From a virus, in the IMG/VR virus record IMGVR_UViG_3300043446_003867, positions 1-64,000 of that record: DNA of 64,000 bases; one strand, written 5' to 3'. The notes under the pieces are model-generated. The model saw nothing but the letters and a program-made list of their open reading frames with translations, was not told the origin of the DNA and made no database searches. Numbering within the stretch: position 1 is the stretch's first letter; every line of letters begins with the position of its first letter. Shown in pieces: positions 16,215 to 61,534 of the stretch. The position numbers were made by a program, and so were the translations under genes.

Positions 16215-16390
16215 GGATTGCTGAGCTAGAGGCAGAGAACGAAGTTCTCCGGGGGCGCGTCGCGAGGATGCGCGCCTGGATTGAACGCGCAACCGAACTG
16301 ATCGCCTTGCTCGGCGGTCAATCGACGTTCGACGCGCACAAGGCGCGCGTCATGGTCCGGGAGGGAATCAATGACACCGCACGAAGCTGA
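16199..16390 (+). CDS. small coiled-coil hypothetical
   Basis: fills the operon gap; RIAELEAENE. Confidence 0.45.
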   Translation: MEPFVRIAELEAENEVLRGRVARMRAWIERATELIALLGGQSTFDAHKARVMVREGINDTARS

Positions 16391-16694
16391 ACAAGAGATT
16401 GCTCGTTTGAAGGACGAGTACCGGAAGGTCGCGGCGATGCTGCTCGGCGAGATCCGCCGCACCGCGATGCTCCAGCGCGCAAGGCTCGGGGATCACGGGC
16501 TCGATCATCAATGGATCAGGCGAATCCTTGCAGAGCAGGCGAAGCCGGCGCCGCAAGGCATTCCGATGTACGCGGCGGAGCAACTGATCATCGCGTGGGC
16601 GGTCGGCGACATTCAGACGTTGCAGGAGTGGTGGTCGAACATGTTGGAAAAAGCAGAGGCGGAGAATCAGGCGATGGAGATGGCTGACCAATGA
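16371..16694 (+). CDS. hypothetical protein
   Basis: SD GGAGG, operon packing. Confidence 0.6.
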   Translation: MTPHEAEQEIARLKDEYRKVAAMLLGEIRRTAMLQRARLGDHGLDHQWIRRILAEQAKPAPQGIPMYAAEQLIIAWAVGDIQTLQEWWSNMLEKAEAENQAMEMADQ

Positions 16695-16879
16695 ACGCGC
16701 GCGTCATTCAGTTTGCGCAGGTCAAAACGTTGCGGGTGTGCCCGTGGTGCGACGCTCGACAGGAAACGAGCGATGACATGCCGGCGGTGCGGAAGTTCGA
16801 CCGGCAGCACCTCGCGTGCCGCGCGAAGGCGAAGCCGGTCGATTACACGGCGCGAAAGTACAGGCGAGGGGCTGAATGA
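16691..16879 (+). CDS. small Zn-finger protein
   Basis: CPWC...HLAC; ATGA overlaps. Confidence 0.55.
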   Translation: MNARVIQFAQVKTLRVCPWCDARQETSDDMPAVRKFDRQHLACRAKAKPVDYTARKYRRGAE

Positions 16880-17970: not shown

Positions 17971-18230
17971 CCCCGGTAGAATTGGCAAGCGCGCTTAGGC
18001 ATGCGATGGCGACGCTCGACGACATCGCGCATGAGATGAATACGACCGGCACGGCGTGCGAGTGCTGCGGGATGATGCGTCGCGATAACTTCGATGACTG
18101 GCAAGCGCGGCAGGCGCTTGAGGGCGCGCATGGTCGTATCTCGAAGCTCTACGACAAACTGATGAACAACGAGTGGCAGGGGCGGCAGTTGGTCCCGGTC
18201 ACGCCAGCAAGCGAGATGCGAGGAAAATAG
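17967..18230 (+). CDS. hypothetical protein
   Basis: SD, ATGA overlap, CECC. Confidence 0.55.
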   Translation: MTPVELASALRHAMATLDDIAHEMNTTGTACECCGMMRRDNFDDWQARQALEGAHGRISKLYDKLMNNEWQGRQLVPVTPASEMRGK

Positions 18231-18231
18231 G

Positions 18232-20217
18232 ATGCACGTCACGGGGGTTTCGCTGAAGAACTGGCTGCGGTACGCGGGCGAGCACGACGTCGTGCTCGCC
18301 CCTTCCGTTTACGGGATCGTTGCGCGGCACGCGGGCGATGATCGGCGCTCAAATTGGGCGGGCAAGACGTCGTTCATTGAGGCGATCCGGTTCGCCTTGT
18401 ACGGCGTGCATCGCTTTGCGCGCGAGGATGACTGGATCACGCGTGGCGTAGCGTTCGGACAGGTTGCGGTGACGTTGAGCAACGGGATCGTGATCACGCG
18501 CAGTCGGCGGCGTGGTCAGTCGACGCAGCTTGAATTGTCGAAGGACGGACAGGTGCTGGCGCGGCAGGACGGGGCGCAGAGCGAAATCGATGCGTTGATC
18601 GGGCTCTCGCGGGAGGACTTCGACACGACGTGCTGGATCGGGCAAAAGCAGCTTTCGCGCCTGATTCTCGCTCGCTCGGCGGAGCGCTTCGAGCTTGTGT
18701 CATCCTGGCTAGGGCTTGAAAAGCTACAGAAGGCGGAGGAGTCGGCAAAGGCGGCGTACGCAGCGGATCGCGCCCGTTCGTCGCAGATCGCTTCGACGCA
18801 GAAGATCCTGACGGACCGCTGGTCGCAGATGATTCTCCGCGCGGGGATCCCGAACATGGAGACGGCGACGGCGGAGGAGTTCGGCGCGGCAATCGAGCGG
18901 GAGATCGCGGAGCTGCGCGCCGAGATCGAGCAAACGCGCGGTGACGTGTCGCGGCTGCTCAAGGCGGTTCGGGCGCGGGAGGCGGTCGAAGCGAGCAAGA
19001 AGCACCGGGCGCAGCTCGCCACGGACTTCGCTCGCGTGTCGGAGGAGGGCAAAGAACTCTCGGCGGCGGTAAAGACGGCGGCGACGGAGCCGATCGACGT
19101 GGACGCTGCCGACGAAGCTCTGCGGGAGAAGTCGGCGATCGTGGCGCTTACGGGCGAAGCGCTCAAGTCGGCGCGCTCGCTCGTGCGCGGGGCGTTCGAT
19201 GGGCGGTGTCCGGTCGCGGGGATCTCGTGCCCGGCAAAAGAGCAGATCAACGCCGACGGCCAGAAGAACACGGATCACTACGACAAAGCGAAAGAGGCTT
19301 ACGAGGAGGCGTGGAAAGTAGAAGCGGACGCGCGTGCGAATCTCCGGACCGAGCGATCAAAAGCCGATCGGCTACGGCAGAGCACCGATCGGCTCCGCGA
19401 CTTGCGCGCTCGGGCAAAGGAGCTGAAGGCTCGCCTCGATAGCGAGCCGGAACAGGCCCTAGAAGGCATCGACGCCGCCGAAACGGGCGACGGGGCGCTC
19501 GCGCGCCTGAATGACCTTCTCGCGGCGGCTACGGCCCGAGAAGAGGCGCTGACCGCGGCGCTCAAGCAGGCGAAGGAAACGGACTTCGCTCTGAAGCACG
19601 AAGCCGAGATGGCGGACAAGGCGAACGCGGCTCTACTGGCGTCGCAGGCGGCGGTGCGAATCCTCGGGCGGCAAGGAGCGCAGCGGGTGATCGCGGAGGC
19701 GGCGCTCACGGAGATTGAAGCGGGGGCGAACGATATGCTCAAGGCGGCGGGGATCGATCTCGCGGTCAAGCTGCTGTGGGCTCGCGAAGGGTCGGGGCTC
19801 GCGTCGATGTGTTCCGAGTGCGGAACCGCGTTTCCGACGTCCGCGCGCGTCAAAGCGTGCGGGCGGTGCGGCGCGGAGCGCGGGCAGAAGGTTATTGAAC
19901 GGCTGGACGTTGAGCTAAGCGACCGCAGCGGCGCCGCGGAAGACCTCGCGGGAGCGGCGCTCCAGCTAGCGGCGACGGCGTGGCTTCGCCGAGAACGTGA
20001 TGTGCAGTGGAGCGTGGCGCTGATTGACGAGCCATTTGGCGCACTCGACGAAGCGAATCGGCGAGCGTTTGCGACGCACCTCACGGCGATGCTCCGAGGC
20101 GCTTACGGTTTCGAGCAGGCGTTCATCGTCGCGCACCATCCCGACGTAACCGACGCGCTCCCCGATCGCGTCATAGTCCGAGCGAACCCAACTGGGAGTT
20201 CACTGGAGGTAGCGTGA
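18232..20217 (+). CDS. sbcC: SbcC/Rad50-like ABC ATPase
   Basis: NWAGKTS Walker A, Q-loop, coiled coil with central CPV, RSGA signature, IDEPFGALD, H-loop. Confidence 0.9.
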   Translation: MHVTGVSLKNWLRYAGEHDVVLAPSVYGIVARHAGDDRRSNWAGKTSFIEAIRFALYGVHRFAREDDWITRGVAFGQVAVTLSNGIVITRSRRRGQSTQLELSKDGQVLARQDGAQSEIDALIGLSREDFDTTCWIGQKQLSRLILARSAERFELVSSWLGLEKLQKAEESAKAAYAADRARSSQIASTQKILTDRWSQMILRAGIPNMETATAEEFGAAIEREIAELRAEIEQTRGDVSRLLKAVRAREAVEASKKHRAQLATDFARVSEEGKELSAAVKTAATEPIDVDAADEALREKSAIVALTGEALKSARSLVRGAFDGRCPVAGISCPAKEQINADGQKNTDHYDKAKEAYEEAWKVEADARANLRTERSKADRLRQSTDRLRDLRARAKELKARLDSEPEQALEGIDAAETGDGALARLNDLLAAATAREEALTAALKQAKETDFALKHEAEMADKANAALLASQAAVRILGRQGAQRVIAEAALTEIEAGANDMLKAAGIDLAVKLLWAREGSGLASMCSECGTAFPTSARVKACGRCGAERGQKVIERLDVELSDRSGAAEDLAGAALQLAATAWLRRERDVQWSVALIDEPFGALDEANRRAFATHLTAMLRGAYGFEQAFIVAHHPDVTDALPDRVIVRANPTGSSLEVA

Positions 20218-37977: not shown

Positions 37978-38256
37978 GTGGGTGAGTGGAAGTTCAACAA
38001 GTGGGCGGATTGCTACGGGGCGTTGATCGAGGAGATCCCCGAAGTGGCGGCGGCGCGAGTGGCGGAGGTCTTCGGTCGCGGCGTGGAGATGAATCATAAG
38101 GATTACGGGGCGGAGTGGGTTTTCGAGGGGTGTGTCGAGGGGCGGCGGGTGAATTACCGCGTGTATGAGCGCGGGGGCGTCATGAGGTTCGGGGGGCCGC
38201 ATGATCATTTCGGATTTGCGGCGTTCCGCGCGTGGTTTCTGGCGTGTGTTGCGTGA
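37978..38256 (+). CDS. cassette 17 ORF
   Basis: GTG after the module. Confidence 0.7.
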   Translation: MGEWKFNKWADCYGALIEEIPEVAAARVAEVFGRGVEMNHKDYGAEWVFEGCVEGRRVNYRVYERGGVMRFGGPHDHFGFAAFRAWFLACVA

Positions 38257-38272
38257 TCGAAGGAGACGGACG

Positions 38273-38992
38273 ATGGCGAAGAAGATTCTCAAGGAAGCGA
38301 TGTACGCGGTGATTTACGTGCGCGTGAGCACGGATCAGCAGGCGAAGGAGGGGATCGGGCTCGACGCGCAGCTTGCGCGGTGCAAGGCGGTGGCGGAGGC
38401 GCGCGGGTTGATGGTCATCGATGATTTCCGAGACGAGGGAATCAGCGGCAAGGCGGAGATTCGGCTTCGGCCTGGTCTGCAAGCGGCGATCGCGAAGTGT
38501 AAGGAACGGAACGCGATCCTGATTAGTTATTCGGTGAGCCGTATTGCGCGTCGGCAGCGCCTTCTCTGGGATCTGCTCGATCCGGAGGGCGGGCACCGGC
38601 TGGCGTATATCTCGGCGACGGAGCCGTTTGATACGTCGACGCCGATGGGGCGCGCGATGCTCGGGATGATCGGGGTGTGGAGCCAGCTCGAAGCGGACCT
38701 CGTGAGCGAGCGGACGAAGGATGCGCTTGCTCAGGCGAAGGCGCGCGGGACGCGTCTCGGAGCGCCGTCGACGGCGTCGCTCGTTACGGAAAGCGCGGTT
38801 GCGCGGATCGACGCGTTGGCGGCGGAGGGGTTGTCGTTGCGGTTGATCGCGGACAAGTTGAACGCGGAGGGTGTCCCGACGGCGAAGGGGGTCGGGCAGT
38901 GGTGGCCGAAGACGGTGCGGTCCGTATTGGTTGATCTGCAAATCAAGCGGATTGCGGCGCTTCCGCGTCATGAAGAAAGCGAGGAACGATGA
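38273..38992 (+). CDS. small serine recombinase (resolvase domain + short recombinase-type HTH)
   Basis: YVRVST catalytic Ser, DEGISG, RPGL, SRIAR, ERTK, IADKLNAEGVPT...W; SD AAGGAG. Confidence 0.92.
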   Translation: MAKKILKEAMYAVIYVRVSTDQQAKEGIGLDAQLARCKAVAEARGLMVIDDFRDEGISGKAEIRLRPGLQAAIAKCKERNAILISYSVSRIARRQRLLWDLLDPEGGHRLAYISATEPFDTSTPMGRAMLGMIGVWSQLEADLVSERTKDALAQAKARGTRLGAPSTASLVTESAVARIDALAAEGLSLRLIADKLNAEGVPTAKGVGQWWPKTVRSVLVDLQIKRIAALPRHEESEER

Positions 38993-45003: not shown

Positions 45004-45251
45004 TTCGTTCGCTGAAAGTTCGCGCCGCGACGTGGCTCACGAAGCGATTGCTGAAGTTTTTGGCGTCGCAGACTGAGAAGGAAGTCGACGAGACGGAGGC
45101 GTTCCCGACGCCTCCGCAGTCGCCTTTGACGCAGGAATCTTGCGTGATGATGTACACGCCTCCCGCGCCGCGCGTTATGAAGACGGAAGCGGCGCCGCTC
45201 GCGGGTAGCGCGAGGGCGAGGGCGGAGCAGGCGCGAAAGAGGACCGTATGA
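45000..45251 (+). CDS. hypothetical protein
   Basis: 4-nt overlaps on both sides. Confidence 0.45.
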   Translation: MIRSLKVRAATWLTKRLLKFLASQTEKEVDETEAFPTPPQSPLTQESCVMMYTPPAPRVMKTEAAPLAGSARARAEQARKRTV

Positions 45252-47167
45252 GCAACGTGATGCAGATGGGCGCGAACTTGGTGATCGGTTCGTCGTTCGG
45301 GATCGACAACACGACCCTCGGGCCGGACTTCCGCGCGCGCACGCTGATCGATTCGGAACGTTACAAGGTGCTTGACCGCAAGGCGACGTACTATTCGTGC
45401 ACACAGCACGACTTCAAGAAGCACGACTTCGATGGTCGCGCGATTCCGGAAGGGAACCCGCTCCTTGGACAGCCGAATCTCGCGAGTGTTCAAGCCGATT
45501 GGTACGTACCGCTTCGCTCCCGACGACCGAGCGCCCCGTACCGTCTCGCTCGTGTCATCGTCGACTCGTTCACCAATCTCGTGTTCGGCTATCAGCGGTG
45601 GCCGACGATCCGTGTTCCTGGTGATAGCGATGCCGAAGAGTTCGTTCGCGCGCTAGTCGATGAGAGCGGGCTGCGCACGCTGATGATCCGTGCGCGAACG
45701 ATCGGAGGCTCGACGGGTAGCGTCGGGCTTTCGTGGCGGTTCTTCGCGGGCAAGCCGGTCGTGCAGGCGCACCAGCCGCGGTCGATCTACATTCACGAGT
45801 GGGAGGATCAGGATCGCCTGATCCCCGCGCACGTCATTGAGATCTATAAGTTCAGCCGCAACGAGTGGGATCCGCAGAAGCAAAAGTTCGTCGTGAACTG
45901 GTACTGGTTCCGGCGCGATTGGACGCTCAAGGCTGACATCACTTACAAGGAAGTGCGCTTCGATCAGGCGGTCGATCCCGAGTGGCAGATCGACGAGGAA
46001 GCCTCGCACGTTCACAACGATGGCTTCTGCCACTTCGTGTGGATTCAAAACCTCCCGACGGAGAACCCGGAGAGCATCGACGGCAACGCGGACTACGAAG
46101 GGCTCTACGAGAACTTCGACTCGATCGACTTGCTGCACAGCACGCTGATTCGCGGCACGACGTTGAACCTCGATCCGACGCTCGTGCTCAAGCTCGATCC
46201 CGACATCATCGAGCGCACGGGCTTGCGCAAGGGCACCGACAACGCGCTTGTTGTCGGGCAAGCAGGCGATGCACACTACATGGAGCTGCAAGGTTCTAGT
46301 GTTCAGGTCGGCACGCAGTTGTTCGCAAAGATGCGCGAAAGCACTCTCGAAGTCGCGCAGTGCGTCGTGCCCGACCCGAACCAGATTGGCGCGGCGGGTA
46401 CGTCCTCGGTGGCGTTGAAGGTCGTCTACGCGCCGATGCTTGGCAAGGCGGACATTCTCCGCGAGCAGTACGAACGCGGGTTGCTCGACCTGCTTACGCA
46501 GATGCTCAAGTCCGCGCGCAACGCCAACTCGAATCCGGTGATCCGCGAAGGTGAAAACGGCGAGATTGTCGAAGAACGTTACGTTCTCGATCTTCCGCCG
46601 CGGCTTGAGCGCCAAGATGTTCTCGACGACGAAGGGAATCCGACGGGCGAAAAAGAAGACGCTTTCGTCGATCAGACTCCGGGTGAAAGCAACCGCATCA
46701 CGTTTGACTGGGGCGATTATTTCCTACCAACGGCGCAGGATCAGCAACAAACGGCGACGACGCTTTCGCAACTCGTTGCCGGCGGTCTTCTCTCGCAAGA
46801 GAGCGGTGCTGATCTCGCCTCGCGTGTAGTCCGCATCGATCCGCGCGCCGAATGGGATCGTATTCAGCGCGAGCAGAAGGAAAAAGCGTCGCAGCAGTCG
46901 TCGATGTTTGGCGGCGATATGGGTGGTGCGCCACTTGGCGGCGATATGGGTGGTGCGCCGGAAGGCGCGGGCTTTGGTATCAAGGGCGGCATGGGTGGTC
47001 GCGTCGGTGCGGAGGACGAACTGCCACCGGGCGCGGAGCCGCGAAAGGCCGGAGCAAAGGCTCTGCGTGTGAATGAAGTTCGCGCGATGCTTGGGGAACC
47101 GTTGCTTGAAGGTGAAGAGGGCGATTTGACGCTGGAAGAGTATCGGCATCGGAAAGGGATCGCGTGA
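45248..47167 (+). CDS. portal protein (SPP1 gp6-like)
   Basis: size, position before the MuF-like gene, LARVIVD and SSVALK motifs. Confidence 0.8.
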   Translation: MSNVMQMGANLVIGSSFGIDNTTLGPDFRARTLIDSERYKVLDRKATYYSCTQHDFKKHDFDGRAIPEGNPLLGQPNLASVQADWYVPLRSRRPSAPYRLARVIVDSFTNLVFGYQRWPTIRVPGDSDAEEFVRALVDESGLRTLMIRARTIGGSTGSVGLSWRFFAGKPVVQAHQPRSIYIHEWEDQDRLIPAHVIEIYKFSRNEWDPQKQKFVVNWYWFRRDWTLKADITYKEVRFDQAVDPEWQIDEEASHVHNDGFCHFVWIQNLPTENPESIDGNADYEGLYENFDSIDLLHSTLIRGTTLNLDPTLVLKLDPDIIERTGLRKGTDNALVVGQAGDAHYMELQGSSVQVGTQLFAKMRESTLEVAQCVVPDPNQIGAAGTSSVALKVVYAPMLGKADILREQYERGLLDLLTQMLKSARNANSNPVIREGENGEIVEERYVLDLPPRLERQDVLDDEGNPTGEKEDAFVDQTPGESNRITFDWGDYFLPTAQDQQQTATTLSQLVAGGLLSQESGADLASRVVRIDPRAEWDRIQREQKEKASQQSSMFGGDMGGAPLGGDMGGAPEGAGFGIKGGMGGRVGAEDELPPGAEPRKAGAKALRVNEVRAMLGEPLLEGEEGDLTLEEYRHRKGIA

Positions 47168-48195
47168 AGCGACTCTCACAAGCGATGTTGATCGACCGAC
47201 GGCAAGCGTTCGCGCTTGCCGATCGCGTTGGTAAACGCGAAGTGGAGCGCATGATGAAAGATGCGGCGGACGAGCTACGCGCGCGCATCTCGTCCAACAT
47301 CGCGACAAGCAGCACGACGCCAACGTCGATTCGTGAAATGCGGGAGACGCTTGCGCAGCTTGAAGGCGTGACAAAGGCGCTATCGCGGCGGGTGGGACGA
47401 ACGACACTCGGGATGGCCGGTGAGGCGGCGGAAGTCGCGGCGAGTGCGGTGTTTGATTATATGGAGGACGCGAATCGCGCGTACATGGGGCGGCCGCTCG
47501 GATTGCGCGAAGCGAGCGTGCTCACCGAAGCAGTGTCCGGCACGAATGCGTCGGTACTTCGACGACTCGCGTCGACCGAGTCGCAGATCGAAGACGTGAT
47601 GGCGGATCCCGACGCAGCGGAAGTTGCACCGCGTATGAATGCGGAGGGCGGCGTGCTCTCGCGGTATTCAATGGAGACGATCGGTGTCTTTGAAGACACA
47701 CTTCGCAACGGCATGATCACGGGAAAACCGTGGGGTGACGTGCGGCAGGAGTTGATCGACAAATCGCCATTCCTGCAAGGCGCGCCGCGTTTCTGGGCGG
47801 AACGCATCATCCGTACGGAGACGATGACTGCTTACAATCGCGCGGGATGGGAGACGATTCGCGAAGCTGACGATGAGCTTGGCGACATGACGAAGATCCT
47901 GAGTGCGACGTTCGACAACCGGACGGGATGGGATAGCTACCAAGTTCACGGGCAGATTCGGCGACCCGACGAGGCGTTCCAGTGGGCAGGTGGGTTCTAT
48001 CAGCATCCGGCGAACCGCCCGAACGATCGCGAAGTCGTCGTACCGCATCGCATTTCGTGGCCGATCCCGGATGAATTGTCGTGGCGCAGCGACGCGGAAG
48101 TTGTCGCAGCATGGCAGCGGGATCGGAGGAAGGGCGCTCCTCCGCCGCGTCCGAAGATGACGACGATCGACTTGAAACGATTCGGACGCGGCTGA
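47164..48195 (+). CDS. MuF / SPP1 gp7-like minor head protein (short form)
   Basis: AERIIRTET..AYN, D.RT...HGQ, HPANRPNDR; no toxin extension. Confidence 0.85.
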   Translation: MKRLSQAMLIDRRQAFALADRVGKREVERMMKDAADELRARISSNIATSSTTPTSIREMRETLAQLEGVTKALSRRVGRTTLGMAGEAAEVAASAVFDYMEDANRAYMGRPLGLREASVLTEAVSGTNASVLRRLASTESQIEDVMADPDAAEVAPRMNAEGGVLSRYSMETIGVFEDTLRNGMITGKPWGDVRQELIDKSPFLQGAPRFWAERIIRTETMTAYNRAGWETIREADDELGDMTKILSATFDNRTGWDSYQVHGQIRRPDEAFQWAGGFYQHPANRPNDREVVVPHRISWPIPDELSWRSDAEVVAAWQRDRRKGAPPPRPKMTTIDLKRFGRG

Positions 48196-50067: not shown

Positions 50068-50895
50068 ATGAACGGTATGGACCAAGCCACCACCACCGAG
50101 GTCACGGGGACGCCCGTGACCGCATCTGTTTCCACGACGGGCACCGCGCCCGTCACGACTGCCGTTGGTACTGCTACGGGCGAGTCGTTTGCGACGAAGA
50201 AGGCCGAACCGGCGACCGCACAGGCGGCGGAACCCAAGGCGACCAAGCGCGCAACGAAGCTCTCGCTCTCGCAGCAGGACTTCAACGAACGCATCAAGCG
50301 CGCGAAGACGAGCGCGTTCAAGGATGCGTTCGGCACCGACGACGTCGATAGTATCAAGCAGCGTCTCGCTCGCGCCGAGGAGCTGGAGGCGCAAGCCGAG
50401 GAGGCGCGCGTCGCTCGTATGAGTGAAGTGCAGCGTGTGAAGTACGAAGCGGATCGTGCGCGCCGAGAGGCGCAACAGTATCGCGCGCAGGTTGAAGAGA
50501 TGCGCGAGCGCGAAGTGGTTCGCGATCAGCAGTCCTTCGTGGAGCGCGTTGCATCGCGACACGTCAATCCGGTTTACATGGAGGAGGCGTCGATCGCCTT
50601 CGCTCGTGAAGTCGCGAAGGCGGATCCCCGTGAAGTTGCTCGCTGGACTGAGAAGGACGTTAGCCGTTGGTTCGCGAGCTACGTCGCGAAGAAGCCCGCG
50701 TTCGCCGCGTCGCCGAACGCGCGTAAGATTGAGAAGAAAATCGCGAGCGCGCCCACGCCGCCGCCGCGCCCCGCTCGCCCTGCGACTCCGAGTGGGTCGG
50801 CGGTTCCGAGCAAGACGTTCAAGCCGGGTCAGCCGAACAGCATGACGCGCGAAGAAGCGCGAGCAGAAGCGAAGCGACGCGGTTACACTTGGTGA
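50068..50895 (+). CDS. putative capsid scaffolding protein
   Basis: coiled coil, low-complexity ends, directly upstream of the capsid gene. Confidence 0.65.
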   Translation: MNGMDQATTTEVTGTPVTASVSTTGTAPVTTAVGTATGESFATKKAEPATAQAAEPKATKRATKLSLSQQDFNERIKRAKTSAFKDAFGTDDVDSIKQRLARAEELEAQAEEARVARMSEVQRVKYEADRARREAQQYRAQVEEMREREVVRDQQSFVERVASRHVNPVYMEEASIAFAREVAKADPREVARWTEKDVSRWFASYVAKKPAFAASPNARKIEKKIASAPTPPPRPARPATPSGSAVPSKTFKPGQPNSMTREEARAEAKRRGYTW

Positions 50896-51016: not shown

Positions 51017-52405
51017 ATGCCTCTCGTTCTTGGTATTCCCCCCAGTGTTGTGAAGCTCGTGCAGGAAGGTCTGCTTGAGCGCGCGTTCCACGATGGCCTC
51101 TTCCCGGCGCTCCAGTACCGCCAGGAAGCGCTCGTCGAAGAGTGGCCGGCCAACACCGGCAACGAACTCTTCATGAGCCGTCCGGGCCTCCTCGCGCCCG
51201 TGACGAAGCCGCTCCAGCCGGGCACCGACCCGAGCCCGCAGGCGGTGAACTACGAGCAGTGGACCGCGGTGCTCAACCGCTTCAGCGGTACCATCGACAC
51301 GAACATGCCGACGAGCGCGACCGCTTCGTCGAACCTGTTCCTCCGCAACATCCACCAGCTGGGCCTCCAGGCTGGTCAGTCGCTCAACCGCATCCCGCGT
51401 AACTCGCTGTTCAAGGCGTACCTCTCGGGCCAGACGCTCACCATCGCGGCGGGCGTTGCGGGCGACACGACGATCCGCGTTGCGGCTCTCAACGGCTTCA
51501 CCACGGTCGTCATCCCGTCGTCGACGGTGCGTCCGGTCCCGGTGTCTCCGGCGACCCCGCTCACGGTGACGATCTCGGGTGTCACCGGCACCCGCAACGT
51601 CGTCGGCTTCACCCCGGACAACCCGGACGATCCCGATGGTCCCGGCACCCTTCAGCTCAGCGCGGCTCTCGGCGGCGCTGGTGTTGCGAACCGCGCTCCG
51701 GTCATCTCGTCGGCGGCTCCGCTCGTCATCCGCAGCGGTGGCGGCATCTCGGTCGACGCGCTCAACGCGGGTGACGTGTTCACCCTTCAGGACGCGATCA
51801 ACGCCGTCAACAAGCTCCGCCGCAACAACGTGCCCCCGCACGAGGACGGCTACTACCACGCGCACATCAGCCCCGACGGCAACGCGCAGGTCTTCACCGA
51901 TCCGGCGTTCCAGCGCCTCAACACCGCCCTCCCGGATTATCATATCTACCACGAGGGCTTCATCGGCACGATCGCCGGCATCATGTTCTTCATGAACACC
52001 GAGTCGCCGGATCGCAACAACGTCGGCACGCTCATCTCGACGGGTGCGAACTCGCTCTACGGCGAGGACATCGGTTCCGAAGTCGTCAACGCAGCGGGCG
52101 TCAACGTCGGCCGCATCCTCATCACGGGCCGTGGCGCTCTCTACGAGAAGTGGCTCCCCGGCACGAACTTCGTCTCTGAGGCTGGCATCACCGGCAAGAT
52201 GGGCGAGTTCGACATCGTCAACGGCGGCATCAACGTGCAGACGGAGCGCATCGACCTGATCCTCCGCGCGCCGCTGAACCGCCTCCAGGACACCGTGGCT
52301 GCGACGTGGCAGATCAGCACGTCGTTCCCGGTTCCGAGCGACATCACCTCGGGCACGGGTCCGGAGCGCTTCAAGCGCGCCGTCGTGATCGAGCACGCGC
52401 TCTGA
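51017..52405 (+). CDS. major capsid protein
   Basis: 462 aa, strong SD, strongly biased codons, follows scaffold, followed by a terminator. Confidence 0.8.
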   Translation: MPLVLGIPPSVVKLVQEGLLERAFHDGLFPALQYRQEALVEEWPANTGNELFMSRPGLLAPVTKPLQPGTDPSPQAVNYEQWTAVLNRFSGTIDTNMPTSATASSNLFLRNIHQLGLQAGQSLNRIPRNSLFKAYLSGQTLTIAAGVAGDTTIRVAALNGFTTVVIPSSTVRPVPVSPATPLTVTISGVTGTRNVVGFTPDNPDDPDGPGTLQLSAALGGAGVANRAPVISSAAPLVIRSGGGISVDALNAGDVFTLQDAINAVNKLRRNNVPPHEDGYYHAHISPDGNAQVFTDPAFQRLNTALPDYHIYHEGFIGTIAGIMFFMNTESPDRNNVGTLISTGANSLYGEDIGSEVVNAAGVNVGRILITGRGALYEKWLPGTNFVSEAGITGKMGEFDIVNGGINVQTERIDLILRAPLNRLQDTVAATWQISTSFPVPSDITSGTGPERFKRAVVIEHAL

Positions 52406-52546: not shown

Positions 52547-53509
52547 ATGGGATGGTGCAAGATGCGGCAGACGTCATTGATTACATGGGCGCGAGCAACC
52601 AGCGGCTTCGGCGACAAGCGATCCGGCAAAACCGAGTTCTCGTCGCAACAGGCGTTGCAAACGTATTTGCGCCAGCATCCGAAGGCGGACGCAAGCAAGC
52701 ACTCCGTCGTGCAGCAAAAGCAGCAGCAGGCGCAGAAGGAAGAACCGTCTCGCAAGACTGCGCAGAGCCACGGGCATGCGGTCAGCGAGAAGGCGCGTGC
52801 GGAAACCAAGTCCAAGATCGAAACGCTCGCAAAGCAGGGGAAGGTCGCAGGTAGCTACGACGCGCTCCACAAAGAGGGCGTTGAGTTTTTGAAGAAGCAC
52901 GCGGCGGGTCTTCCGGCGTCGAAGTCGGCGCTCACGGAGTTGTCCGCAGACCTTGGCGGCAAGGTGTCGGGGCGTACGAAGGAGATCGATTCGGCGCTCA
53001 ACAAGGTTGTGCTGAAGCACAAGGGGAACGATCCGAGTCGCCCCGAGAAGGGTTACTCCAAGGTGTCGGAACTTGCGGACGGCGCGGGTCTTCGATGCAT
53101 TGTAAACTCACCGAAGGACGTGCTCACGGTCGTTGATCGGTTGAAGAAGGATCCTCGCTTTGAGAACATCTCGAAGGACGAGGAGGATTACATCACCAAG
53201 CCCAAGGGCGGGTATCGCTCGTACCACCTTGTCATGCGCGACAAGCGCGATGGGCTGTTGAAGGAATTTCAGATCCGGACGCCTCGGCAGAATACGTGGG
53301 GCGATTGGTGTCACGACGTCTACAAGCCGCAGAACGCGTTGCAGATGGCGACGATGAAGGATCCGCTCGCGAAGCGCGAAGTGCTCGCGTACGCCGAGAA
53401 GATGTCGGATCGTTACTTCGACATGGATAGCGGGAAGAAGCCGCGCGGGTCGGCACCGCCTTGTACGCCCGCCATCAAAAAGTCGTTCGGGTGTCTGCCC
53501 GATAAGTAG
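52547..53509 (+). CDS. RelA/SpoT-domain small alarmone synthetase-like protein with N-terminal extension (start uncertain)
   Basis: GRTK..DS...K, LADGAGLR, DYITKPK.GYRSYH, EFQIRT..Q..W...H..YK. Confidence 0.9.
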   Translation: MGWCKMRQTSLITWARATSGFGDKRSGKTEFSSQQALQTYLRQHPKADASKHSVVQQKQQQAQKEEPSRKTAQSHGHAVSEKARAETKSKIETLAKQGKVAGSYDALHKEGVEFLKKHAAGLPASKSALTELSADLGGKVSGRTKEIDSALNKVVLKHKGNDPSRPEKGYSKVSELADGAGLRCIVNSPKDVLTVVDRLKKDPRFENISKDEEDYITKPKGGYRSYHLVMRDKRDGLLKEFQIRTPRQNTWGDWCHDVYKPQNALQMATMKDPLAKREVLAYAEKMSDRYFDMDSGKKPRGSAPPCTPAIKKSFGCLPDK

Positions 53510-53520
53510 GAGCGAAAACC

Positions 53521-53754
53521 ATGGCTGACAAATCGTGGGTTGAGCGGTCGAGTGAAGCGATTGAGCGCTTCATGCCGAAGGCTGGCGAGGGGTTCAACGT
53601 CGTTGCGGTCGATGCGTACGAGGAACCCGGCGACGAGTTGTACCTAGTCGGTAACTTCGAGAGCGAAGCCGAGGCAGAGGAAGCGGCGGCAGCGCATACG
53701 AAGCGCAGCGGCGATAAGGCGTACGTGTACGCGCCGGAAACGTTGAGGCGTTGA
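53521..53754 (+). CDS. small acidic protein, candidate antitoxin/immunity
   Basis: SD AGGAG; directly downstream of the synthetase; role inferred. Confidence 0.55.
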   Translation: MADKSWVERSSEAIERFMPKAGEGFNVVAVDAYEEPGDELYLVGNFESEAEAEEAAAAHTKRSGDKAYVYAPETLRR

Positions 53755-53755
53755 G

Positions 53756-54598
53756 ATGCCACTCAAAAAGGGTTCTAGCGACGAAACGATTGGCGCCAAC
53801 ATCGGTAAGTTGGTCGGAGAAGGCTACCCGCAGAAGCAGGCTGTAGCGATCGCCTACAAGGAGGCGGGTCGCAGCAAGTCTGGTTCGGAATGCGTTGCGT
53901 GCTCGACGAAGAGTGCGCGTGGCAAGTGCGTGAAGTGCGAAAGCGGTCGCGGCGCTCTGGTGACGTGGGCTCGCTCGGTGAGCGGCATGGGTCGCAGTGG
54001 CAAGGCAGAGTTCTCTTCGCAACAGGCGTTGCAGAGCTACCTTCGCCAGCATCCGAAGGCTGACGCGAGCAAGCATAGCGTTGCGCAGGCGGCGACGAAG
54101 TCGGCTGCGCCGCAAGAGGCCAAGCCCGAGGTTCACCCGGAGTTTTCCAAGTTCGTCTCTACGCTGTACCCGGCTATTGCGGCGGGTCATCTATCCGGAC
54201 CCGATTCTCTGAAACTCATGGCGAAGCATCCGCACGCTCCTGCCGGGTTCGAGAAACATCTGGAGGGCGACGCGAGCAAGCATAGCGTGACGGGCGGAGA
54301 GCAGCCGAAACTCGCCGAGGCACGTCCGTCGATTAAGCGCGCGTCGACGAGTCGCTTTCAGGATCCGAAGGGGCCGATGAAGTGGCGGGCTGGCGACGAT
54401 TCTAGCAAGTACATTCACACGCTTGATGGAACGTACAATTGGACGCCTTCAACTGGGCATCTCTCGTTCATTTCAAATAAGAACGGGCGGCGCACCGTTC
54501 TTTCCAAGGATCTTAATCCACGGCGCACTGGCGGATTTCACGATATGAAAAACGAAGAGCAAGCCATGGAGCGCGTCAAGCAACACGCGAATAGGTGA
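53756..54598 (+). CDS. modular head-region protein
   Basis: MPLKKG...QKQAVAIA N-terminus; ~42-aa segment shared with the synthetase. Confidence 0.7.
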   Translation: MPLKKGSSDETIGANIGKLVGEGYPQKQAVAIAYKEAGRSKSGSECVACSTKSARGKCVKCESGRGALVTWARSVSGMGRSGKAEFSSQQALQSYLRQHPKADASKHSVAQAATKSAAPQEAKPEVHPEFSKFVSTLYPAIAAGHLSGPDSLKLMAKHPHAPAGFEKHLEGDASKHSVTGGEQPKLAEARPSIKRASTSRFQDPKGPMKWRAGDDSSKYIHTLDGTYNWTPSTGHLSFISNKNGRRTVLSKDLNPRRTGGFHDMKNEEQAMERVKQHANR

Positions 54599-54601
54599 GC
54601 C

Positions 54602-55693
54602 ATGGCCGGGAAGTACGACCACATCGACTTCAAGCCACCGTCATCCGTCGCGAACGCGGCGGAGCGCGGGCTTGAGTACCGCAAGAAGCAGGGCAAGGAC
54701 AAAGCCGGCTTGACGCAGAAGGAAGCGTCGAAGCAGGGCATCGGCTCTGGCGTTCAGCGCGCGTCGAACCTTAAGGGGCGGAGCAATCTGAGCCCCGAGA
54801 CGGTGCGGCAGATGGGTCGGTTCTTCTCGCGTCATGAGAAGAACGCGAAGATCGATGCGGAGCACAAGGGTGAGCCCTGGAAGGACAAGGGCTACGTAGC
54901 GTGGCTCCTTTGGGGTGGCGACGCTGGGCGGTCGTGGGCGAACAAGGTGATTCGGCAGATGGACGCTGCGGACAAGAAGTCGGGCAAGGGCATCGAGGAC
55001 GCGTGCTGGAAGGGCTACGAGGCGGTCGGCATGAAGACCAAGAATGGTCGGAAGGTGCCGAACTGCGTGCCGAAGAAGGGTAAGGGAATCCCCGACGCGC
55101 AGGAGCGCGCGGCGTTCGATATCCCTCTCGCTCGGTGGGCGAACGCGATGGGCGGTCGCGGCGTCGAGCTTCGCGCTCCGGCGGTGAAGCAGAAGACGAA
55201 CTACTCGTGCGGACCGGCGGCGCTTCGTTCGGGAATGGCGGCGCTCGGTGTCGGCGCGAAGGAAGACGAGCTAGCCGAGAAGGCGGAGACGAGCGCGAGC
55301 GGTGGCACGAGTATCCACGGGCTCGCGAAGGCGGCGCAGGCGTTCGATCTGGAAGCCGAGATCCGCGATGGCATGACGGTGGACGAACTCATGTCGTGCA
55401 TGGACGATGGGTGCGTGGTCCTCGTTTGCTTGCAGGCGGGCGACGACGCGGAGGATTACGATTCTTCGCACTGGGTGCTGCCGGTAGCGGTGAAGGACGA
55501 GGGCGGCGCTCCGATCGTCGAGTGCATGGACCCGAGCCGGAAGAAGGTTCACTCCGTGATGAAGCTCGACGAGTTCGAGGAGCGCTGGCACTGCGTCGAC
55601 ATGGGCAAGCCGGTCAACGGGCTCGCGCTCGTGATCCGCGGAGAGTCGCCGGCGAACATGACGCTGATCGACACGGCGAAAATGCCGATGTGA
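54602..55693 (+). CDS. N-terminal phage domain + C39-like cysteine peptidase
   Basis: Q.TNYSCGPAAL, GGTS...L, SHWV, MDP; N-domain with FFSRHE...AWLLWGG. Confidence 0.85.
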   Translation: MAGKYDHIDFKPPSSVANAAERGLEYRKKQGKDKAGLTQKEASKQGIGSGVQRASNLKGRSNLSPETVRQMGRFFSRHEKNAKIDAEHKGEPWKDKGYVAWLLWGGDAGRSWANKVIRQMDAADKKSGKGIEDACWKGYEAVGMKTKNGRKVPNCVPKKGKGIPDAQERAAFDIPLARWANAMGGRGVELRAPAVKQKTNYSCGPAALRSGMAALGVGAKEDELAEKAETSASGGTSIHGLAKAAQAFDLEAEIRDGMTVDELMSCMDDGCVVLVCLQAGDDAEDYDSSHWVLPVAVKDEGGAPIVECMDPSRKKVHSVMKLDEFEERWHCVDMGKPVNGLALVIRGESPANMTLIDTAKMPM

Positions 55694-59029: not shown

Positions 59030-61534
59030 ATGTCCGTTTTCATCCGTCGATTCACCTTTGACCCCGGCGTCCAAGTTTTTCTTGAGATCGAGGCGGTCAA
59101 CGTCCTGGACCTGACTCCGCCGTCGTCGATCACGGGTGTCGGCACTGGCACCGCAATGATCGTGGGCGAGTTCGAGGACGGGCCGTTCAACACGCCGCTT
59201 GAAGTCACGAGTGCGACGGAGCTTGCGAGCACGTTCGGCAACTTCGGTTACACGTACGGTGGCGTGACGGCGCAGAACCCCTGCGCTCGCGTGCGCTACG
59301 CCGATGGCGCAGTGGTTCCTGAGTACTGGAACGGTAACGGGCTCCTCGCGCTCAACGCGAAGCGCTTTTCCCGTCTCCTCATCACCCGCGCCGACACCAG
59401 CGTCGGCGTCGTTGACTTTGAGCGTTGCGCGTCGATCGTCGGTGGTTCGGCGTTCACCTACTCGCTCTCGCCGGCGCAGACGTTCATCTTTGGCACGGCC
59501 ACGGCGTCGTACACGGTGACGTTCAACGCGGCGGCGGCGACGCTCACCAGCGCGGCGGGCGTCTACCCGACGGGCTTCACGGGTGGCGAAGTGATGACGA
59601 TCGTTCGCGACGGCATCACGTATACGGTCGTCTTTCAGGCGAGCGATCAGACGCAGACGCAGGTAATCGACCGCATCAACGGCACGCTGGGCTACACGGC
59701 GGCGGTCAACGGCGGCGGTGGCGTTACCACGCTCTCGTCGCTCAATCGCGGTTCGGGCGCGACGATCGCGATCACCGCGCCGACGACGGCGTCGGTTCTC
59801 GCGGCGACTGGTTTCGTGATCGCGTCGGCGACGGGCACCGGCAACGTGTTGAACATCGCGGCGGTTACGGCGTCCGAGATTGCTTCGCTCGTCAGCACGG
59901 CCTCCGCTGGTGCGGTTGTGCTCACGCAGCTTGATAGCGGCGCGCTCCGCCTTGAGGGTATCGGCGCTCCACTCACGGGCGTGCTTCGAGTGACGGGTGG
60001 CACGGCGACCGCGGCGCTCGGCTTCTCGCTCACGCAGAACGCGGCGTGGCAAAATGCGCCGGTTGAAGTTGAGATCGACGCGATCGATGCGGGCGTCGCG
60101 GCGGCGCTCGGCTTCGCGGTTACGACGGCGCGTCCGGTGATCGTCAGCAGTGCGGGCGTTTACCCGACGGCGTTCGTCGGCGGTGAAGAGATGACCATCA
60201 CGGTTGCGGGTTCCGCGCCGAAGGTCGTCACGTTCCAGTCGACCGATCAGACGATCGCGCAGGTTGCGGCGCGTATCAACCTCACGCTCGGTTACACGGC
60301 GGTCGTTGCGCAGAGCGCGACGATCCTCGCGATGGCGGGCACGGGGCAAAGCAGCATCGCGATCCCGGCGGGCACGCGCGTTCGCAACGCGGGCGGCAAC
60401 GTGTGGGTCACGATGCAGACCCAGGCAGTCGACGCGGGCGCTCCTGGTCCGTACGCGCTCAAGGTTCGTCCTGCGACCGACGACGGCACGGCGCCTCTCG
60501 CGGCGGCGCTTTCGATCAACGCGCTCAGCTCGCCGTTGTTCGGTGCGGCGTTCATCGTGTTCAACCCGCTCCAAGTGAATGCGGCGTTGAGCGAGTCGGC
60601 GATCGATGCATCGTACACGGTGGCGATCGACTCAACGCTTAACAGCGCGTCGGTTGCGGCGGAGACGAACATCATCTGGTCGGCTCGCCAATCGAACGCG
60701 GTGCGCACGAAGCTCCGCCAGAACGCGAACGACGCGGCGTCTAGCGGCCTCTACGGACGCATCGCCGTGATTCGTCCGCCGCTCAAGACCACGAAGGCGC
60801 AGGCGCGTTCGGGCGCGGCGCAACCGGGCGTCGGCGCGTACCGCGACCAGCGCGTTGTGTACGTCTATCCGGGCGTGCAGACGTTCATTCCGGCGATCGC
60901 GACGATCGGCACTGCTGGCGGCGCTGGCTTTACGGCTGATGGCATCATTGACATCGGCGCTGACGGATTCCTCGCGTCGGTGTGTTCGCAGCTTCCGCCG
61001 GAGGAGAACCCCGGTCAGCTCACGACGTTCACGGGCGGCGCGCTCGGCATTGAGGCGGGCAACCCCGACGTGCAGAACCTCACGCTCACGGACTACAAGA
61101 ACTTCCGCGCTTCGGGCATCTGCGCGCCTCGCATGGATCTCGGGACGATGATCTTCCAGTCGGGCGTAACCTCGGTCGATCCGGCGGTCTACCCCTCGCT
61201 GCGCAACATCAACCGTCGTCGCATGGCGGACTTCATTCAGGACAGCCTTGCGATCGCGCTCAAGGCGTTCGGTAAGCAGCTCGCGACTCGCACGCGTCGC
61301 GCGCTCATCACTGGACAGATCAAGTCCTTCATGGACGGGCTGCTCTCGCCGAACAACAGTGCGGCGCAGCGCATTGAGGGCTACACGATCGACAGCGTGA
61401 GCGGGAACACCGCAGAAACGCTGGCGCTCGGGATCTTCCGTATCATCCTGAACGTCCGTACGATCGCCTCGCTCGACGCGATCGTGCTGCAAACGACCGT
61501 CGGCGAATCTGTGGACGTGTCTCAGACCGCGTGA
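59030..61534 (+). CDS. contractile tail sheath protein
   Basis: PGV...VGEFEDGP...FG N-terminus; INRRRMADFI C-terminal sheath motif. Confidence 0.88.
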   Translation: MSVFIRRFTFDPGVQVFLEIEAVNVLDLTPPSSITGVGTGTAMIVGEFEDGPFNTPLEVTSATELASTFGNFGYTYGGVTAQNPCARVRYADGAVVPEYWNGNGLLALNAKRFSRLLITRADTSVGVVDFERCASIVGGSAFTYSLSPAQTFIFGTATASYTVTFNAAAATLTSAAGVYPTGFTGGEVMTIVRDGITYTVVFQASDQTQTQVIDRINGTLGYTAAVNGGGGVTTLSSLNRGSGATIAITAPTTASVLAATGFVIASATGTGNVLNIAAVTASEIASLVSTASAGAVVLTQLDSGALRLEGIGAPLTGVLRVTGGTATAALGFSLTQNAAWQNAPVEVEIDAIDAGVAAALGFAVTTARPVIVSSAGVYPTAFVGGEEMTITVAGSAPKVVTFQSTDQTIAQVAARINLTLGYTAVVAQSATILAMAGTGQSSIAIPAGTRVRNAGGNVWVTMQTQAVDAGAPGPYALKVRPATDDGTAPLAAALSINALSSPLFGAAFIVFNPLQVNAALSESAIDASYTVAIDSTLNSASVAAETNIIWSARQSNAVRTKLRQNANDAASSGLYGRIAVIRPPLKTTKAQARSGAAQPGVGAYRDQRVVYVYPGVQTFIPAIATIGTAGGAGFTADGIIDIGADGFLASVCSQLPPEENPGQLTTFTGGALGIEAGNPDVQNLTLTDYKNFRASGICAPRMDLGTMIFQSGVTSVDPAVYPSLRNINRRRMADFIQDSLAIALKAFGKQLATRTRRALITGQIKSFMDGLLSPNNSAAQRIEGYTIDSVSGNTAETLALGIFRIILNVRTIASLDAIVLQTTVGESVDVSQTA

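Follow-up and report, generated by a model that had tools for sequence, protein, structure and literature searches.

A two-part protein tag on swappable cargo, its first part also on a C39 peptidase, encoded beside the capsid gene of an uncultured phage

Phages inject proteins along with their DNA and, to our knowledge, the addressing of arbitrary cargo to the head is understood in very few systems, namely T4 CTS, MuF fusions and P1 Dar. A stretch of 64,000 nt (the window), part of an 89-kb record of an uncultured phage, raises the question of why genes next to that of the major capsid protein encode unrelated proteins bearing the same short tag, in one case directly before a C39 cysteine peptidase domain. 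The source phage is a myovirus whose capsid and neck genes flank the cassette described here. Upstream, and on the plus strand like all window features described below, are encoded a portal protein (45248..47167; phrog_64 portal, E 8.1e-10), a stand-alone MuF-like minor head protein with no effector fused to it (47164..48195; PF04233 Phage_Mu_F, 34.4 bits against a cut-off of 29.6) and the major capsid protein (51017..52405; phrog_1357 major head protein, E 2.8e-18). The capsid protein is approximately 30% identical to its nearest counterparts in cultured phages, and the first tagged gene begins approximately 150 nt downstream of the capsid gene. Two ORFs of 834 aa had suggested that the window might be a wrapped genome, which was rejected on the lack of nucleotide similarity between positions 1-20000 and 40001-64000; their products are a DNA polymerase and a tail sheath.

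The first tagged gene, p320 (52547..53509), encodes the tag followed only by a RelA/SpoT-type nucleotide pyrophosphokinase (PF04607, aa 142-259, E 2.3e-16; 60.5 bits against a cut-off of 27), with no MuF domain. Judged from the sequence, its true start is probably the second methionine codon at 52562, because homologs begin MRQ(S/T).LITWAR. Directly 3' of it lies p77 (53521..53754), a small acidic ORF without family match, which is possibly a putative immunity or chaperone protein. The next gene, p280 (53756..54598), encodes a phrog_2423 domain (aa 1-44, E 4.8e-16), a CxxC...CxxC cluster, the tag, a degenerate second half-copy and a C-terminal part for which no family match was found. It is followed by p363 (54602..55693), in which two phage modules (phrog_2859, aa 5-122; phrog_9737, aa 124-159) precede the tag motif and a C39 cysteine peptidase domain (PF03412, aa 193-329). 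The initial annotation had assigned a single signal and a module of approximately 42 aa to all three proteins, each time ahead of a different C-terminal cargo. The translations of the motif copies agreed exactly and the cargo does differ (RelA_SpoT in p320, the part without family match in p280, C39 in p363); the full module of 42-44 aa is present in p320 (52577-52708) and p280 (53957-54082), whereas p363 has only its first 12 residues. The conserved tag stands, but as two separable elements, of which the second does not depend on C39.

Part 1 (hereafter the W-helix) consists of a helix, LxxWA[RN]xxxG-x-G, with glycine-rich linkers on either side, and part 2 is a beta-alpha-beta mini-domain of 26 aa, EF..AL..YL..HP.AD.SKH.V. 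In p320, part 1 is LITWARATSGFG, comprising the W-helix and glycines (52577..52612), and part 2 is TEFSSQQALQTYLRQHPKADASKHSV (52631..52708; mini-domain HMM, E 5.6e-20). In p280, part 1 is LVTWARSVSGMG (53957..53992), directly preceded by SGRGA, and part 2 is AEFSSQQALQSYLRQHPKADASKHSV (54005..54082; E 4.1e-19), with a partial second copy of the mini-domain end (DASKHSV) at 54269..54289, a weak HMM stretch with E 0.27. Part 1 of p363 is LARWANAMGGRG (55127..55162). Comparison of the 42 aligned codons of the two full modules gave 19 identical, 17 synonymous and 6 nonsynonymous codons with no frame problems, in line with the many synonymous differences reported initially; over the 25 codons from EF onwards the figures were 15, 9 and 1. 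As the differences are mostly synonymous, selection has acted on the protein. No Pfam, PHROG or NCBIfam model matched the tag, which agrees with its having been called undescribed. Among 61 sequences, the mini-domain residues F, Y, H and P showed no variation and A, D, H and V very little, and the mini-domain of a relative was predicted as strand-helix-strand with a pLDDT of approximately 86. The conserved His-Ser/Thr of the mini-domain was weighed as a self-cleavage site and dismissed, since His can be followed by S, T, W, Q, H, K or R.

The pattern L..WA....G.G occurred four times in the predicted proteome of the 89-kb record (approximately 23,700 aa), compared with an average of 0.013 over 300 residue shuffles, the pattern having been set post hoc from three copies and the fourth having turned up only later. 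This fourth copy of part 1 occupies the extreme C-terminus of an acidic protein encoded beyond the window (genome 65065-65643), and the C-terminal W-helix was retained in 13 of 13 homologs. Between 0 and 5 residues follow the conserved glycine in these proteins, one homolog stopping on the glycine itself. The position of part 1 is therefore variable: N-terminal, internal or extreme C-terminal.

Assignment of p363 to the C39 peptidases is supported by family scores, catalytic residues and predicted fold. The protein scored 32.8 bits against PF03412 (cut-off 22) and 27.1 against DUF3335 (cut-off 25), the C39_2 score of 20.7 falling under its cut-off of 24. In an alignment of 28 C39 proteins (p363 itself and 27 homologs) the catalytic residues Gln197, Cys203, His290 and Asp310 of the peptidase domain (55178..55693) were invariant, with the oxyanion Gln six residues before the Cys; we take these to be equivalent to the ComA residues. 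Foldseek searches with the predicted structure returned the peptidase domains of PCAT1 and ComA as top matches (7n87, E 7e-5, TM (target) 0.70; 3k8u, TM (target) 0.77, rmsd 2.9), and residues 201-350 of the AlphaFold2 model had mean pLDDT values of 72-97 in blocks of 10 residues. The protein stands alone at 363 aa between the capsid and neck genes and has no transporter part, which sets it apart from ABC exporters. As the initial annotation had stated, the motif lies just before the C39 domain, ending at residue 187 with the Pfam match starting at residue 193; its GG (residues 184-185) is 18 residues upstream of Cys203. L176, W179 and G187 were nearly invariant in the 28 aligned proteins, and the spacing between the W-helix and the catalytic domain behind it was constant in 27 of them; in one the helix lay upstream, and three had two copies. 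Alignment of the module against the C39 proteins with hhalign placed module positions 1-12 on the W-helix stretch as the sole match (E 0.002, at a probability of only 13.7%). A helix was predicted at residues 174-182 and was not docked on the C39 domain; since pLDDT was below 50 across residues 166-200, the model says nothing on docking.

A profile search with the mini-domain yielded 414 cluster representatives, mostly on contigs of huge phages and often near head genes. Their cargo included RelA/SpoT, topoisomerase IB, zeta-toxin, ART and HD domains and many domains of no known family; GNAT (related contig L015) and helical proteins were also found behind the tag, and zeta toxin behind the full module in proteins P0098 and P0103. 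In 21 metagenomic proteins the module was 68-100% identical and the C-termini were unrelated. The slot beside the capsid gene that holds RelA/SpoT in the window is taken by topoisomerase IB in the related phages L001 and L010; in L016, topoisomerase IB cargo is encoded past the neck genes. These results bear out the proposed polymorphic effector family, with one tag before unrelated C-termini in the same genomic slot of relatives. Small acidic ORFs resembling p77 also trail the topoisomerase IB cargo of L010 and L016. None of the phages in GenBank carries the module: matches to p320 (13 records) covered the RelA/SpoT part only and matches to p280 (79 records) the phrog_2423 domain only, with one longer match (H14) that had an unrelated continuation. 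A scan of genome contigs returned no more than three weak, partial matches, with 15-32 residues aligned at 41-67% identity, and these were left aside; the ESM Atlas gave no usable match for the one mini-domain protein submitted.

Close C39 homologs co-occurred with at least one tagged gene in nine of ten independent contigs (the window, L002, L003, L004, L005, L011, L012, L015 and L016), counted over the available DNA, the tenth (L095) ending approximately 0.7 kb past its C39 gene. The C39 gene is a fixed gene of the syntenic core, while the other tagged genes swap. Together with the near-invariant L, W and G in the region ahead of the peptidase domain, the co-occurrence upholds the suggested tie between motif and C39 peptidase. 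Part 2 is far more widespread than part 1 and independent of C39. A second C39-like family was found in 2 of 49 records of the wide mini-domain family and in none of the five that were at least 90% complete, and a general link between mini-domain and C39-like genes was rejected on these counts; members of that second family lie within 10 kb in five contigs (L058, L069, L076/L078, L080 and L091), adjacent in L069 and L080. The junction between helix and mini-domain also differs, with 3.08 Gly per 12 residues in the window's clade (38 sites) against 0.36 in the wide family (132 sites). In the wide family, 122 of the 132 junctions fit [AGS]-x-[ED], and all 132 have A, G or S as the first of these three residues (P3).

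The data establish the anatomy and conservation of the tag, its co-occurrence with C39, the variation of its cargo and its setting among head genes; we infer packaging of the tagged proteins, their cleavage and the identity of the protease. The reading that we prefer, tentatively and with slightly less than even confidence, is that the C39 peptidase of the head cluster reads part 1 as a portable tag for docking and processing, and that part 2 remains on the packaged effector. The three genes would form a variable cassette of virion-packaged, probably injected effectors. Part 1, an amphipathic helix of approximately 10 residues (L-x-x-W-A-[RN]-x-x-x-G), would be a clade-specific peptide for docking and processing, recognised by the phage's own C39 (double-glycine-type) cysteine peptidase, which would take the place of a head-maturation protease. 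The enzyme would cut at the glycines flanking the helix, in itself and in cargo, thereby releasing the proteins from whatever precedes the helix, be it the phrog_2423 domain, other modules or a short leader; p363 would cut itself at the GG 18 residues before Cys203, much as StbD-CT does. Part 2 would be an independent, very widespread N-terminal element of phage-packaged effectors that is kept on the mature cargo.

Support for a head-protease role comes from the phrog_2423 domain, which heads most of these C39 proteins and also a DUF2213 protein of Acinetobacter phage AP22 annotated as head maturation protease, and from PHROGs searches over the entire 89-kb record, in which no classical prohead protease came up. 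Several observations count against this reading. Proline is poor at the P1' position, and it follows the conserved glycine in the C39 homologs P0043, P0048-P0050 and L002. A cut after a C-terminal W-helix, as in the acidic protein, would achieve nothing. C39-like domains of cultured phages are annotated as lysin domains, the best PDB match by sequence is the cell-wall isopeptidase PeiR, and the wide mini-domain family is mostly unlinked to C39-like genes, the second such family occurring in 2 of 49 records. The misfit of the tag to the double-glycine leader consensus, the undocked helix of the AlphaFold2 model and the low hhalign probability also count against it.

A related system is the capsid targeting sequence (CTS) of phage T4 internal proteins, a short N-terminal tag on unrelated packaged proteins followed by a site for the prohead protease gp21, the cargo being injected with the DNA. 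A short tag common to unrelated, here putatively packaged, proteins is the likeness; there is no sequence likeness, the present tag has two parts and is also internal and C-terminal, and the candidate protease is a C39 cysteine peptidase where that of T4 is an S77 serine protease. No L/I-x-E site was found at the tag in this clade, and S77 protease PF03420 gave no match in 50 records related to the window's own, one of them that of the closely related L004 phage; with the control silent too, this search carries no weight. Double-glycine leaders are N-terminal, 15-30 residues long, end in GG, GA or GS, have hydrophobic residues at -4, -7 and -12 and follow the consensus LSxxELxxIxGG. The locus resembles these leaders and the PCAT/ComA-type exporters in pairing a bona fide C39 domain with an amphipathic helix that ends in glycine(s). 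An invariant Gly follows the helix, and W would stand at -7. Among the differences, the putative P2-P1 residues are S-G, G-G, A-G or L-G, and the peptidase is soluble, belongs to the head cluster and lacks a fused ABC transporter. Part 1 also misfits the consensus and is not always N-terminal, which tells against a bacteriocin-type N-terminal leader.

StbD-CT, the C39 peptidase toxin of a CdiA-like protein and a structural neighbour of p363 (8ssk), undergoes cis auto-processing after a Gly-Gly 25 residues before the catalytic Cys, as demonstrated experimentally in the available text of the preprint (bioRxiv 10.64898/2026.05.07.723447). In both proteins C39 follows a delivery domain (a putative one in p363) and a linker Gly-Gly, at 18 residues in p363; StbD-CT differs in its contact-dependent-inhibition delivery and immunity protein and, in that text, in having no W-helix or tag shared with other proteins. 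MuF polymorphic toxins of temperate phages, as described in the available parts of PMC5576092 and PMC12226406, likewise belong to the phage head module and combine a constant N-terminal part with exchangeable toxin domains, RelA/SpoT-like ones included, whereas here MuF is a separate, unfused protein of 343 aa (47164-48195) and the conserved part is a tag of 42 aa. Polyvalent proteins (Iyer et al. 2017, PMC5512222) have the same effector repertoire of RelA/SpoT, ART-PolyVal, DUF2958, zeta toxin and topoisomerase; their packaging was predicted and processing by built-in peptidases proposed. The available part of that article names four peptidase superfamilies (zincin-like MPTase, assemblin-like, DD and LonC) and does not contain the word 'papain'. 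The proteins described here differ in carrying mostly a single cargo behind the tag, as do p320 and p280 (p363 has three modules, and a protein of 2808 aa in L090 of the wide family is clearly multi-effector), and in a mini-domain without Pfam match, which may be among the 40 novel domains of that article. In giant phage SPN3US, the available text of PMC10052503 has the prohead protease gp245 cutting head-protein propeptides, of 20 and 24 residues, at AXE. The wide family similarly has an N-terminal helix of approximately 20-30 residues followed by [AGS]-x-[ED], and this resemblance to the AXE cut site makes clade-specific junction chemistry an argument for processing; no protease of the gp245 kind was identified in these contigs, and the window's clade has glycine-rich linkers in place of the site. 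Literature searches found nothing joining polyvalent proteins, bacteriophage and C39, or double-glycine, prohead and phage, and the articles consulted from a search on C39, virion, bacteriophage and cysteine peptidase describe no head-cluster C39.

The variable position of the W-helix suits a docking motif better than a leader, and the same tag is found on four functionally unrelated proteins of one phage. The main alternative, possible if somewhat unlikely, is that the W-helix is purely a capsid address, not read by C39, with a binding partner in the procapsid such as the scaffold, portal, MuF or shell interior, the peptidase being a further tagged cargo, injected and self-freeing, that attacks host proteins. 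StbD-CT, a delivered C39 toxin, self-processes and then cleaves GyrB and ParE, according to the available text of the preprint cited above. Contig L006, in a record approximately 7% complete in which no C39-like gene was found, has another clade-specific N-terminal helix (LRSKVIRLAH.NPELR..LLPLL) on four cargo genes in a row, whether or not they carry the mini-domain. The fixed position of the C39 gene among swapping tagged genes speaks against a pure address, as does the restriction of glycine-rich flanks to the C39-bearing clade, and no binding partner was identified.

Two further explanations are each considered improbable. That p363 is a cell-wall peptidase (virion-associated lysin or endolysin), its shared motif having nothing to do with the processing of phage proteins, would fit its best PDB sequence match, the pseudomurein endoisopeptidase PeiR (8z4h, E 5e-5; ComA, E 7e-3), a match to phrog_6007 'endolysin' (aa 180-240, E 2.5e-6), the many lysins among its viral fold neighbours and its only cultured-phage match, the 'protease C39 domain' of lysin A of Gordonia phage Mollymur; p363 aside, no endolysin was recognised in the 89-kb record. 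By fold, however, PCAT1 and ComA (ranks 1-8) stand above PeiR (21 and 27), the Pfam C39 score exceeds its cut-off, and the N-terminal domains and tag of p363 are common to cargo genes. The protein also lies between capsid and neck genes with no wall-binding domain and no adjoining holin. The module might instead be a small structural or linker domain with no targeting or processing role, kept at gene starts as a site of homologous recombination for cargo swaps. Such swaps do fall exactly behind the module, and the third gene of L010 has a mosaic joint in which the first 15 residues of p363 run straight onto it. Conservation of the protein sequence (17 of the codon differences being synonymous and 6 nonsynonymous), the invariant and near-invariant residues, identity across very different phages and G+C contents, the confidently predicted compact fold and the C-terminal copy retained in all 13 homologs are evidence to the contrary.

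Extending the preferred reading of a C39-read docking and processing tag to the whole clade is more speculative, and we hold it doubtful. These phages would have rebuilt head loading and maturation around C39, with the W-helix as both procapsid ticket and cut mark on the protease itself, the swappable injected enzymes and the acidic protein. The mini-domain would be a universal handle, as yet without a name, of injected effectors across huge phages, and the cleavage site would have co-evolved with the head protease, as [AGS]-x-E in giant phages and as glycine runs here.

A two-part tag on swappable enzymes, its first part shared with a C39 peptidase, points to a new phage route for loading and releasing injected proteins. 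If true, this would be the first C39 double-glycine peptidase in virion biology. The tag of 10 residues and the mini-domain of 26 residues would then provide a sequence handle with which to find injected effectors in uncultured phages, and together they would be a candidate means of filling capsids with foreign proteins.

The IMG/VR record, of which the window forms the first 64 kb, is 89,081 nt in length and is estimated to be 97% complete. PHROG and Pfam scans of the record describe a myovirus-type phage whose gene content includes replication genes, the large terminase, tube, tape measure and baseplate, together with a portal (45248-47167), an unfused MuF protein (47164-48195), a major capsid protein (51017-52405) and a sheath (59030-61534); a coiled-coil scaffold-like protein lies at 50068-50895. 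The major capsid gene is followed by tagged and C39 genes, the neck genes, the sheath and then the tube, tape measure and baseplate. The closest capsid proteins of cultured phages are only ~30% identical to that of the window, at 31% for the nearest one in GenBank, and the phage group is therefore uncultured. No endolysin, holin or classical prohead protease was recognised across the 89-kb record using PHROGs at E-values up to 1e-5. A serine recombinase (integrase or invertase, phrog_95/125) is encoded at 38201-38992, just 5' of a DNA-binding protein and the large terminase, and the last ~12 kb of the record mostly hold few convincing ORFs. Two ORFs of exactly 834 aa (8812-11316 and 59030-61534) were considered as a repeat and rejected, being a DNA polymerase and the tail sheath, mutually dissimilar and equal in length by coincidence.

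Three neighbouring forward-strand genes behind the capsid gene, p320 (52547..53509), p280 (53756..54598) and p363 (54602..55693), share a sequence element, and the three peptide stretches listed for them in the initial annotation match the translations exactly. The full module or tag of 42-44 amino acids occurs in p320 (52577-52708), with RelA/SpoT as cargo, and in p280 (53957-54082); its first 12 residues, the W-helix, recur alone in p363 just before the C39 domain (55127-55162). Comparison of the two long modules over 42 codons gives 19 identical codons, 17 with synonymous and 6 with nonsynonymous differences, which amounts to purifying selection at the protein level. Four matches to L..WA....G.G are present in the predicted proteome of ~23,700 aa, against 0.013 expected from 300 shuffles; the fourth copy turned up after the pattern had been fixed and sits outside the window. 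It forms the C-terminal end (...PLAAWARSMGGMGRR-stop) of a strongly acidic protein of 192 aa (genome 65065-65643; L106:2166-2744) encoded directly 3' of the tape-measure gene, and this terminal W-helix is kept in 13 of 13 homologues. As a guess, this protein might act as a DNA mimic or as an internal protein. Glycines flank the W-helix on both sides, internal copies following [SG]-G-[RK]-G and every copy being followed by G-x-G or GG.

In 21 proteins recovered by a word-indexed search the module is retained (68-100% identity) and leads into unrelated sequence; the module is absent from GenBank phages. The module either opens the protein (M-x3-L-x-T-W-A-R...) or is preceded by the domain phrog_2423 and a Gly/Arg/Lys/Ser linker; in some proteins of the latter kind a CxxC...CxxC cluster is also present. 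In p280 this cluster, possibly a zinc ribbon, separates phrog_2423 from the W-helix (53888-53956), and the proteins P0009 and P0010 have it as well. Related contigs, whose capsid proteins align closely by eye with that of the window over their full length, carry a cassette from the capsid gene to the neck genes. Where the window has a tagged RelA/SpoT protein behind the capsid gene, contigs L001 and L010 have a tagged topoisomerase IB; in L016 the topoisomerase IB cargo gene is located 3' of the neck genes, in L015 a GNAT domain (PF00583) follows the tag, and further related contigs encode tagged helical proteins rich in Ala, His and Lys. A mosaic gene (L010:1930-2559) fuses the first 15 residues of p363 (MAGKYDHI.FKPP.S) straight onto the module. 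The polymorphic effector family proposed initially is thus borne out, the module preceding unrelated C-termini and the cargo being swapped between related phages. A 77-aa acidic ORF (53521-53754) lies directly 3' of the RelA/SpoT cargo gene, and small acidic ORFs also lie 3' of the topoisomerase IB cargo in L010 (941-1162) and L016 (11008-11280); these may be immunity or chaperone proteins. Between the neck genes of the related phage L004 is an ORF (11053-11715), HNH-endonuclease-like by eye, that is missing from the equivalent position of the window.

By family, residues and predicted fold, p363 is a genuine C39 enzyme. The domain scores above the Pfam cut-off, Gln197, Cys203, His290 and Asp310 are invariant in 28 aligned C39 proteins, and the model of the domain is confident, the PCAT1 and ComA peptidase domains being the nearest solved folds. 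L176, W179 and G187 are nearly invariant in the same alignment, with the consensus (ERAAFDIP)L-x-R-W-A-x-A-x-G-G-[RK]-G(G)-x-V-x-V-R-V-P...Q-x-T-x-Y-[TS]-C-G-P, and most members carry phrog_2423 at the N-terminus. Since the W-helix is displaced by 55 residues upstream in P0047 (L004 9082-9966) relative to other C39 homologues and is duplicated in three, it is movable and not part of the C39 fold. Profile-profile comparison of the module with the C39 alignment gave a single match, at module positions 1-12 (E 0.002, probability 13.7%). A tagged gene is present in nine of ten independent contigs with a close C39 homologue, the tenth ending ~0.7 kb past the C39 gene, and none was found at eight more distant C39-like loci.

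A profile built from 15 modules and run against 1.84 billion representatives returned 414 proteins at E-values up to 1e-3, 62 of them at up to 1e-10. Among the 150 matches listed, 33 start at profile position 1 or 2 and most others cover only positions 17/18-43, which defines the second part of the module as a mini-domain, with the consensus [AGS]-x-E-F-[PS]-[ST]-x-[ED]-A-L-x-x-Y-L-[KR]-x-H-P-x-A-D-x-S-K-H-x-V. Across 61 sequences there is no variation at F, Y, H and P and very little at A, L, A, D, H and V. The AlphaFold2 model of the mini-domain is compact (pLDDT ~86) and runs from a short strand (EF) through a helix and the HPxAD turn into another short strand (xV); the mini-domain has no matching model in Pfam, PHROG or NCBIfam. 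Proteins carry one to four copies, mostly near the N-terminus. The mini-domain was located at 72 viral loci, and many of these belong to contigs 200-530 kb long; of 13 loci sampled, 7 lie within ~6 kb of genes for portal, head, head-protease or connector proteins. Cargo in 50 of the 150 matches listed includes RelA/SpoT, topoisomerase IB, zeta toxin, HD, ferritin, ADP-ribosyltransferase and ChaB, and 7 of 60 locus ORFs have a Pfam family (topoisomerase IB twice, zeta toxin, DRAT, DnaJ, pentapeptide repeats, OAS1_C). Neighbouring L006 genes encode ART-PolyVal and DUF2958 behind a common N-terminal helix of another kind, with or without the mini-domain. A 2808-aa polyvalent-type protein (L090:6560-14983, twin L089) combines one mini-domain with topoisomerase IB, 2'-5' RNA ligase and a poly(A)-polymerase head domain split by an intein with a LAGLIDADG domain. 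On a few huge-phage contigs a distinct second C39-like family (RQxSQY[TS]C ... HASVV ... DPNIP) adjoins giant mini-domain proteins (L069:7295-8692 and 8702-13645; L080:8013-9071 and 8909-12814).

In the wide family an amphipathic helix leads directly into the mini-domain through [AGS]-x-[ED] at 122 of 132 sites; P3, the first of these three residues, is A, G or S at every one of the 132, and the 12 residues upstream contain 0.36 glycines on average. In the W-helix clade there are 3.08 glycines per 12 residues and [AGS]-x-[ED] fits only 14 of 38 sites; sites were assigned to clades by regular expression, which places at least two that resemble the glycine type (P0057, P0083) among the 'wide' ones. 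The wide-family [AGS]-x-E resembles cut sites of giant-phage prohead proteases, such as gp245 of SPN3US, which cuts after AXE and for which known N-terminal propeptides of 20 and 24 residues are among those described (PMC10052503). This fits a helix acting as a propeptide or docking piece, with a site behind it suited to the resident protease, but a small residue followed by Glu could equally be structural.

A packaging role is supported by the head context: no classical prohead protease was recognised, and phrog_2423 recurs in other phages. This 44-aa domain (MPLKxGSS...QAVAIA; 53756-53887 in p280), which also heads cargo proteins and may itself be a head-interior domain, forms in Acinetobacter phage AP22 the N-terminus of a DUF2213 protein whose annotation is head maturation protease (L092:4001-5326), and a phrog_2423 protein (L111:6001-6582) is encoded two genes upstream of an annotated 'internal virion protein D' in MW202675.1. 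The favoured reading, held tentatively, is that the W-helix is a portable tag for docking and processing that the C39 peptidase recognises. On this model p363 would process itself at G184-G185, 18 residues before Cys203, the peptidase would also free cargo from upstream domains or short leaders, and the mini-domain would remain attached to the packaged effector. The proposed self-cut parallels that of the C39 toxin StbD-CT, for which a preprint reports an experimentally demonstrated cis cut after G157-G158, 25 residues before Cys183 (bioRxiv 10.64898/2026.05.07.723447).

Several observations weigh against this model. A cut behind the C-terminal W-helix of the acidic protein would be pointless, although a Gly run also precedes that helix; Pro follows the conserved Gly in some C39 homologues; the tag does not match the classical leader consensus; and AlphaFold2 of p363 gave no docking signal for the W-helix. 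For these reasons the chief rival is a pure address tag, with the C39 protein a self-freeing injected protease, which is judged rather unlikely. That p363 is a lysin is improbable, and would accord with PeiR as its best PDB match by sequence, with lysin A of Gordonia phage Mollymur as its only cultured-phage relative and with the lack of any recognised endolysin in the record.

The system of the window works like the T4 capsid-targeting sequence, MuF toxin fusions and polyvalent proteins, yet is a member of none; its MuF protein is unfused. The mini-domain cargo and the ART-PolyVal and DUF2958 proteins match the polyvalent-protein domain repertoire of Iyer et al. (2017, PMC5512222), whose listed peptidase superfamilies lack a papain-like or C39 type; the mini-domain might already be one of the 40 novel domains aligned in the supplement to that study. 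Among the matches listed in a full-text search, no literature joining C39 or double-glycine processing to phage heads was found. Phage-packaged polymorphic effectors as such are known, and the two-part tag and the candidate protease are new.
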